From Candidatus Micrarchaeota archaeon (GTDB lineage Archaea; Micrarchaeota; Micrarchaeia; Norongarragalinales; Norongarragalinaceae): a DNA stretch of 41,466 bases. Shown piece after piece: positions 22,215-22,380 of this stretch. The DNA lies in the NCBI GenBank assembly GCA_964477205.1, contig CAYZDE010000003.1, positions 1 through 41,466 on the forward strand, given 5' to 3'. A program made the position numbers and the translations under genes. The notes under the pieces are model-generated. The model was not told the DNA's origin. It saw only the letters and a list, made by a program, of their open reading frames with translations, and made no database searches. Every line of letters begins with the position of its first letter. Within the stretch, counting starts at the first letter, position 1.

Positions 22215-22250
22215 TTTTCATTCACCTACTAATTTCCATTAACCTTCTTT

Positions 22251-22329
22251 AAAACCCAATTGCCGAGCCCACTTTCCAGGCAAGCCCAACGCTATTGGAA
22301 TCGCGTAGTCGTCGTGCAAGCAATCCAAC
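22251..22329 (-). promoter_or_regulatory. Candidate attenuator: alternative RNA hairpins followed by UUUU
   Basis: Hand-paired helices: GUUGGAUUGC/GCGAUUCCAAU; GUUGGGCUUGC/GUGGGCUCGGC (11 bp, many G-U); and UCCAAU/AUUGGG immediately before UUUU. Confidence 0.5.
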
Positions 22330-22339
22330 GATTCGACAT
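22292..22339 (-). CDS. Putative Thr-rich leader peptide MSNRWIACTTTTRFQ upstream of thrS
   Basis: ATG TCG AAT CGT TGG ATT GCT TGC ACG ACG ACT ACG CGA TTC CAA TAG. Four consecutive Thr codons at 22315-22304; stop 77 nt upstream of the thrS ATG. Confidence 0.7.
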   Translation of the reverse strand: MSNRWIACTTTTRFQ

Positions 22340-22360
22340 GAAAAAAGCAACGCGCGCATA

Positions 22361-22380
22361 CTTTAAAAAGTTGCTTTTCC
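22361..22380 (-). promoter_or_regulatory. TATA box with purine-rich upstream element for the leader/thrS transcript
   Basis: Minus strand GGAAAAGCAAC-TTTTTAAAG ends 21 nt before the leader ATG, the spacing expected for a leaderless archaeal transcript. Confidence 0.55.

Follow-up and report, generated by a model that had tools for sequence, protein, structure and literature searches.

The 41,466-nt stretch analysed here (the window; positions 1 to 41,466 of contig CAYZDE010000003.1, assembly GCA_964477205.1, from a Candidatus Micrarchaeota archaeon) carries on its minus strand a short open reading frame (ORF) with a run of threonine codons, located upstream of thrS, the gene for an archaeal-type threonyl-tRNA synthetase (ThrRS). 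We find that this upstream ORF (uORF) is part of a compact module that consists of a TATA box, a spacer of 18-25 nt, an ATG, 12-19 codons with 3-5 Thr codons at their end, a stop codon and a hairpin. The ORF, its spacing, the hairpin architecture and the restriction to thrS are conserved in nine thrS leaders. Comparison of these sequences suggests that the module is probably a cis-acting thrS leader, sensing charged tRNA-Thr by means of the translating ribosome. In the window, the uORF (15 codons plus stop, encoding MSNRWIACTTTTRFQ) occupies minus-strand positions 22339-22292, 77 nt 5' of thrS. It reads ATG TCG AAT CGT TGG ATT GCT TGC up to the proposed sensing codons, four tandem Thr codons (ACG ACG ACT ACG, 22304-22315), which are followed by CGA TTC CAA and the stop TAG (22294-22292). 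An initial annotation of this DNA had described both the ORF and the 248-bp intergenic gap (22215-22462) in which it lies, and both were confirmed from the sequence and the domains of ThrRS. The protein matches the archaea-specific editing domain from its first residue onwards (E 6.8e-41) and also has a class II core and an anticodon-binding domain; the thrS start is therefore sound and the gap is indeed 248 bp long.

The initial annotation had interpreted the uORF as an attenuator and proposed searching for it at orthologous loci. We compared 148 thrS upstream regions of the class (30 + 119 loci, minus L028, which holds only a C-terminal end) and found the module in nine, three belonging to the window's own family (f1) and six to genus g59, which falls in family f22 of another order. 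The f1 carriers (the window genome G000, G004 and G022) represent three genera among the 24 f1 regions examined, while in g59 the module is present in six of the eight genomes examined. The f1 peptides of G004 and G022 are MVMKTVSSTTTT and MPIATTTTTRSF; those of g59 are MDPSVVIVATGGTTTTTC (G098), MNCRQVLPEAVAATTATTC (G117), MENRPATYFAAARTTTTC (G392), MYTGSFGSIGSTGNTTTC (G316), MYGGSFGSIGSTGNTTTC (G226) and MPKAKSTKRITETTTY (G370). Inspection of 80 metagenome loci added only L169, with an element identical to that of G022, and 80 loci from named genomes yielded five strong matches, all from genomes already in the survey. Two further candidates, L106 and L228, were dismissed on inspection. An unpublished genome, G297, entered one survey tally only, and none of the results draws on its sequence.

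Chance does not account for this recurrence. With Thr-rich ORFs defined by an ATG start, a length of 6-40 codons and at least four Thr in six residues, 10 of the 148 thrS regions contain one on the sense strand and none on the antisense strand, compared with 0.75 on average and never more than 3 in 200 trials of mononucleotide shuffling. The tenth sense-strand match (L005) is an unrelated 27-codon frame lacking the other features of the module. No other amino acid equals the Thr count with an ATG start and the same contrast between sense and antisense strands in these regions. Within the window genome, based on our own crude ORF calls that may miss short or odd genes, the Thr-rich criterion is satisfied in 2 of 753 upstream regions, and four Thr codons in a row occur at thrS only. 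These same 753 regions contain 25 ATG-started ORFs with amino-acid runs. The initial annotation had also suggested scanning other synthetase genes for cognate-codon uORFs; the genes behind ten of these 25 were annotated and include no synthetase (T2SS-F-like, radical SAM/TRAM, FtsZ, ACT and rhomboid proteins, among others).

Across the nine peptides, conservation is limited to the Thr run and its nearness to the stop codon, with both N-terminal sequence and length (12-19 codons) differing between leaders. The 3-5 Thr codons always lie inside the last 4-8 codons, and the run ends 0-3 codons before the stop. In the alignment of the nine leaders, bases one and two of the three final Thr codons are invariant except for a single A, while the third bases vary. 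Near-fixed first and second bases, variable third bases and an otherwise unconserved peptide are what is expected of regulatory codons rather than of a functional peptide.

Each of the nine leaders has a TATA-like hexamer whose end lies 18-25 nt 5' of the ATG. The one in the window is the TATA box TTTTTAAAG (minus strand, 22361-22369), which ends 21 nt before the uORF ATG. The same arrangement characterises gene starts throughout the window genome: TATA-like hexamers peak 22-26 nt before them, and this spacing is present at 131 of 736 gene starts compared with 61 of 1182 intergenic ATGs. The genome's promoter consensus is A-rich at -36 to -34, T-rich at -31 to -28 and A-rich at -26 to -24. Most genes of this genome thus look leaderless, and so does the uORF, because the distance from its TATA box to its ATG matches that of the gene starts. 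The earlier suggestion of a leaderless transcript starting at this ORF is compatible with the promoter spacing, which fits a putative transcript start at the AUG itself.

Immediately beyond the uORF stop lies a GC-rich hairpin (22262-22290, minus strand) with a core stem formed by 22287-22282 and 22270-22265. The stem differs in sequence between lineages while pairing is kept: five of seven pairs change on both sides, and 91.5% of alignment cells are paired. For the whole structure tested (hairpin plus a helix between Thr codon and loop), 88.5% of cells are paired compared with 30-46% when the partner is slid out of register, and its covariation score was reached by none of 500 shuffles. The same stem is obtained with RNAalifold. 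Between its arms lie 11 bases (GCCTGGAAAGT at 22281-22271 in the window) that conform to GCYYGGMRVGU in 9/9 leaders. The outermost two bases at either end of this motif may also pair, which would leave a 7-nt loop. The window hairpin folds as 11 bp with a 7-nt loop. The position of the hairpin is likewise constrained in the nine leaders, with its first paired base 12-16 nt past the last Thr codon (16-18 nt for the 6-bp core) and 1-9 nt past the stop. The helix between Thr codon and loop, in which the last Thr codon (plus a Cys or Tyr codon) would pair with the 3' half of the loop as a pseudoknot or an alternative to the hairpin, covaries in g59 and fails in the window, G022 and G004; as a true pseudoknot such a helix looks sterically unlikely.

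The hairpin is specific to thrS. R1, a covariance model built from the ORF end and the hairpin, matched 4 of 151 genomes scanned from the class, once each and at thrS, all four being training members. The model of the hairpin alone (R2) gave a single significant match per genome in five of five genomes, always in the thrS leader, with the next best match at an E value of at least 0.08. In the window this match spans 22258-22291, and nothing else in the genome was significant. This rules out a repeat, and equally a hairpin copied from an rRNA or tRNA. A search of Rfam with the window region returned only Alpha_RBS, on the other strand and at 14.6 bits compared with a gathering score of 38; for the eight other leaders, only two noise matches far below gathering were obtained, and no leader family was recovered. 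The conserved loop sequence suggests that it has a partner. The hairpin had been overlooked in the initial annotation, which had correctly recorded the uORF and the TATA boxes, and so had a divergent micro-ORF described below.

The relative placement of ORF and hairpin points to how the leader could act. Counted from the P-site codon, the archaeal ribosome extends over 15-16 nt (PMC7261190), which places its edge about 10 nt past the A-site codon. Computed on this basis for the nine leaders, a ribosome on any of the Thr codons has its front edge 2-6 nt or more short of the stem, while one whose A site holds the stop codon reaches 1-9 nt into the stem base in 9/9 leaders, and in the window covers nearly the whole 5' arm. 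This geometry is the sole mechanistic feature we found to hold for all nine leaders.

We propose that the uORF is translated and that stalling within it governs thrS. Judging from the spacing, transcription would begin at the ATG (22339) or directly beside it, about 22 nt 3' of the TATA box (22361-22369), to give a leaderless RNA. A ribosome would then translate the 15-codon ORF, encountering the Thr codons just ahead of the stop, with the conserved-loop hairpin next in the RNA. When Thr-tRNA-Thr is scarce, the ribosome would wait on the Thr codons, 2-6 nt short of the hairpin, which would be left folded; when it is plentiful, the ribosome would reach the stop codon and open the hairpin base. 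The state of the hairpin would in turn set the amount of RNA polymerase, or the number of ribosomes, arriving at thrS. As the output we favour a folded hairpin that lessens stopping or pausing at the U-rich stretch beyond it, such that starvation would raise thrS expression. That the folded state should favour thrS, and hence that stalling should turn thrS on as the initial annotation had proposed, follows from logic only, this being the only physiologically sensible direction of control.

Several observations weigh against this reading. Constrained folds and pairing tests revealed no mutually exclusive terminator/antiterminator structure common to the nine leaders: pairing between the Thr region and the hairpin is significant in only two of nine (G316 and G226), and an alternative hairpin beside the U run is no better than in shuffles in 8/9, the exception being an A/U hairpin in G098. 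A weak hairpin that ends in the U run (-3.3 kcal/mol) is available to the 3' arm in the window, but 41% of shuffles form one as well. Nor is the GC hairpin directly followed by a U run, as in an intrinsic terminator of the bacterial kind: the first run of four or more T residues is located 9-31 nt beyond the stem in an A/U-rich stretch in the nine leaders, and a T4 run occurs in approximately 36% of any 60-nt gene flanks in the window genome. Premature termination near 22251, as first envisaged, finds no support in the sequence: the T4 tract is not distinctive, the hairpin does not directly precede the U run and no exclusive pair was found. Archaeal termination may need only a U run, so the stretch may yet have a terminator function. 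Masking of the thrS ribosome-binding site finds no more support: the Thr region shows no complementarity to it (z -1.25 to +2.0), and moving the ribosome along the leader has no consistent effect on how accessible the site is predicted to be. In folding energy the leaders do not surpass their shuffles (z -0.68 to +0.27). Finally, the distribution of the module is patchy: neither of the two same-genus genomes (G001 and G002) has it, nor does the closest metagenome relative (L164, 72% identity), and the nine loci are kin, perhaps representing four to seven independent lineages, so that counts overstate their independence.

The conservation of the loop raises the question of whether the hairpin is instead a protein-bound operator, with ThrRS the obvious candidate as in E. 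coli autoregulation and the ORF secondary or incidental. The 11-nt loop is conserved while the stem covaries, the pattern usual for loops that a partner recognises; the hairpin occurs at thrS alone; and we found no RNA switch that would account for the loop. On its own, such an operator leaves unexplained the Thr run, the frame with a TATA-spaced ATG in 9/9 leaders and the near-constant distance from Thr run to hairpin. Nor is the hairpin a faithful mimic of the anticodon arm. Such a mimic would present G35-U36 in a 7-nt loop, yet the 7-nt loop reads YYGGMRV, placing A or C after GG, at the position of U36, in 9/9 leaders, and the stem is unlike the anticodon arms of the genomes' own tRNA-Thr. 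The idea that the loop tracks the D loop of each genome's own tRNA-Thr was likewise not supported. We therefore regard an operator without ribosome sensing as improbable, noting that the two ideas are compatible and not mutually exclusive. A T-box-like riboswitch, in which uncharged tRNA-Thr pairs with the ACN codons and uses its 3' end to pair with the UGG of the loop, would dispense with the ribosome altogether. The window loop does contain UGGA, complementary to the U73-CCA end of its tRNA-Thr. However, tRNA-Thr has U73 in G000, G004, G117 and G098, and yet eight of the nine loops contain UGGC or CGGC; there is no Rfam T-box match, and the ATG, frame, stop and TATA spacing are left without explanation, making this the most remote of the readings considered here. 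The tRNA-Thr genes themselves show one peculiarity: in L373 (G098:C13), the two halves of a tRNA-Thr match lie 96 bases apart, as if separated by a long insert after the anticodon loop, and the gene is not called by ARAGORN. A similar partial tRNA-Thr match was seen in L369 (G022:C123).

Another reading places the thrS promoter downstream of the module. The sequence TTTTAAAG (22247-22254, minus strand) may be either a leader U-tract at which polymerase pauses or terminates, or the TATA box of a proximal thrS promoter, in which case the ORF and hairpin would represent a separate short transcript or a decaying relic. The caveat of the initial annotation that this box could drive thrS directly stands, and counts against the leader reading: it is 33 nt from the thrS ATG, and in G002, which is of the same genus and, like G001, has no leader, the TATA-like hexamer closest to thrS has exactly this spacing. 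In G004, by contrast, the module sits between thrS and the TATA box GCGTTTAAACCGTTTTC, and the same box in its sister G013 is located 25 nt before thrS. No other TATA-like box was seen by eye in the G004 leader, and thrS there should therefore be transcribed through the module. The g59 leaders extend 155-283 nt to thrS. Furthermore, the window and G022, which belong to different genera, have the entire module in common together with this box; the 12-mer GGTTTTAAAGAA found in both suggests that the box belongs to the module, and a relic would not retain an open frame, the spacing and covarying pairs. Exclusive use of the proximal box thus appears improbable, although a proximal promoter is plausible in the window and could make thrS partly leader-independent. 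It could also be argued that the ORF arose by chance or that its small peptide serves some separate function, given how common small ORFs are among the upstream regions of the window genome; the lack of peptide conservation apart from the Thr run, and the specific tie to thrS, render this very unlikely.

Taken in minus-strand order, the window gap thus contains the TATA box, uORF, hairpin, TTTTAAAG, a Shine-Dalgarno-like AGGTGA (22222-22227, 7 nt before the thrS ATG at 22214) and thrS itself (20319-22214, minus strand, 631 aa). Motifs of the GGTGA type precede thrS in most other leaders. The named relatives of the window ThrRS come from Candidatus Micrarchaeota assemblies, in agreement with the initial annotation, which had guessed at Micrarchaeota. 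The long g59 leaders (234-283 nt) of L074 (G392) and L110 (G316) hold a second short ORF between hairpin and thrS, which has its own GAGGT-type Shine-Dalgarno sequence and contains a GC hairpin. Relative to contigs of the same population from three other salt-lake metagenome runs, the window differs by three single-nucleotide polymorphisms (22374 C>T, 22388 T>C and 22390 C>T), all of which fall between the TATA box and the plus-strand micro-ORF. The same three assemblies have no listed difference in those parts of the uORF and hairpin covered by their contigs, a weak point in favour of the module.

The gene on the opposite flank (22463-23353) lies on the plus strand, and the gap is therefore a divergent promoter region. 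This gene has a C-terminal S-adenosylmethionine (AdoMet) decarboxylase domain, and the next gene encodes deoxyhypusine synthase. Outside the thrS leader, a micro-ORF (MHYAKKDCP-stop, 22392-22421, plus strand) ends 41 nt before it, and its start is located 22 nt from the TATA box, which reads CTTTAAAAA on the plus strand. With 21 nt to the uORF ATG (22339) on one side and 22 nt to the micro-ORF ATG (22392) on the other, the box is probably used in both directions. ORFs of 8-13 codons ending in KK[D/E/A]CP-stop precede 12 of 27 orientable homologues of the AdoMet_dc gene, all among the 19 closest, at 35-91 nt before the membrane-domain/AdoMet-decarboxylase gene. Those of the relatives (L337-L346, L354) encode MRFAKKDCP, MLKKKDCP, MERKKKDCP and similar peptides, each followed by a stop. 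They show synonymous third-base changes, and in 7 of the 12 a TATA-like hexamer ends 20-25 nt upstream of the start. Because the ORF ends in Pro-stop and polyamine and hypusine genes follow, one may speculate that it encodes a stalling peptide sensing polyamines or aIF5A activity.

Combining these elements leads to a bolder picture, which we put forward as a rather unlikely one taken as a whole. The thrS leader would be the first ribosome-sensed amino-acid switch in Archaea and would lie outside the bacterial terminator/antiterminator scheme; the position of the ribosome would gate the 11-nt-loop hairpin for a trans-acting partner, possibly ThrRS; and the leader would stand back to back, via the shared TATA box, with a leaderless sensory micro-ORF ending in KKDCP-stop ahead of the AdoMet-decarboxylase-like and deoxyhypusine synthase genes. 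If true, the gated hairpin would join charged-tRNA sensing with free-enzyme sensing.

Further features of thrS loci in the survey were observed alongside the module. Weak model matches in two named Micrarchaeota records, at L270:17-58 and L310:32-88, correspond to ORFs of the ...TTTC-stop type (encoding MSISKDLTKTTTC and, at its end, MIRMDLVTETTTC) approximately 510-540 nt 5' of thrS. Small ORFs, one of them helix-turn-helix-like by eye, lie between these Thr ORFs and thrS. The conserved-loop hairpin is absent from both loci, and the 5' part of the ORF pairs with a segment past the stop; both ORFs may have diverged from the g59 type of leader. The order also has a second form of ThrRS (G001:C4:10381-12594, G003, G009, G012, G018, G036, G039 and G040), including G001 from the same genus as the window. 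Its frames are 739-796 aa long, and compared with the window enzyme the editing domain is 51-75% identical and the catalytic part 26-29%, suggesting replacement of the catalytic core. In genus g9 (L013, L014 and L015), a tRNA-like gene lies by eye immediately 5' of thrS on a strand that varies by genome, and two of the three seem to hold extra internal sequence.

In our literature search we met no leader-peptide attenuator from an archaeon, none ahead of a synthetase gene in archaea, and no account of how archaeal thrS is controlled, although other papers could exist. The sensing of charged tRNA by leader peptides is a textbook bacterial mechanism, exemplified by the leaders of the thr, his and trp operons and by pheM before pheST. 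The E. coli thrS operator is a tRNA-like structure bound by ThrRS. PMC4007540 gives a summary of trp attenuation, and PMC2965389 mentions autoregulation by ThrRS. The archaeal leader resembles the bacterial attenuators in having a short 5' ORF with tandem cognate codons on the sense strand and structured RNA right after it. It differs in being archaeal, in its predicted leaderless TATA start and conserved-loop hairpin, and in having neither a terminator/antiterminator pair, nor a hairpin abutting the U run, nor an Rfam leader match. With the E. coli operator it would share control of thrS through a hairpin in the gene's own leader; however, the archaeal loop lacks an anticodon-like G-U, a Thr-codon ORF accompanies the hairpin, and the hairpin cannot compete with a ribosome at the thrS start because it is 47-207 nt away.

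The closest parallels are found among leaderless bacterial transcripts. In Deinococcus deserti (PMC4007540), a 5'-terminal AUG starts a peptide of about 10 residues rich in the cognate amino acid before synthetase genes, for example cysS with two Cys, and 14 such leader peptides are given. The likeness extends from the cognate-rich peptide ahead of a synthetase gene, predicted to be leaderless in the archaeal case, to the downstream gene having its own Shine-Dalgarno sequence, whereas the D. deserti leaders are bacterial, start from a -10 promoter and are predicted to act by terminator attenuation (PMC4007540). In mycobacteria, according to 10.1101/834739, poly-Cys leaderless short ORFs act through a stalled ribosome that blocks a duplex hiding the next gene's ribosome-binding site. 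As proposed for thrS, these are leaderless sensory ORFs in which a stalled ribosome reports amino-acid supply to the gene downstream; the masking of a ribosome-binding site was not found in the thrS leaders. At approximately 125 nt, the element makes the question of regulatory coupling between transcription and translation in archaea directly testable. For archaea with genomes as small as these (745 kb for the window genome, 0.7-1.6 Mb across the survey of its relatives), it would be sensible to economise by matching ThrRS to the charged tRNA-Thr available. If our reading is correct, archaea, like bacteria, use the translating ribosome as a metabolite sensor, relying for this on components of their own: a TATA promoter, leaderless initiation and an output that dispenses with the bacterial type of terminator.

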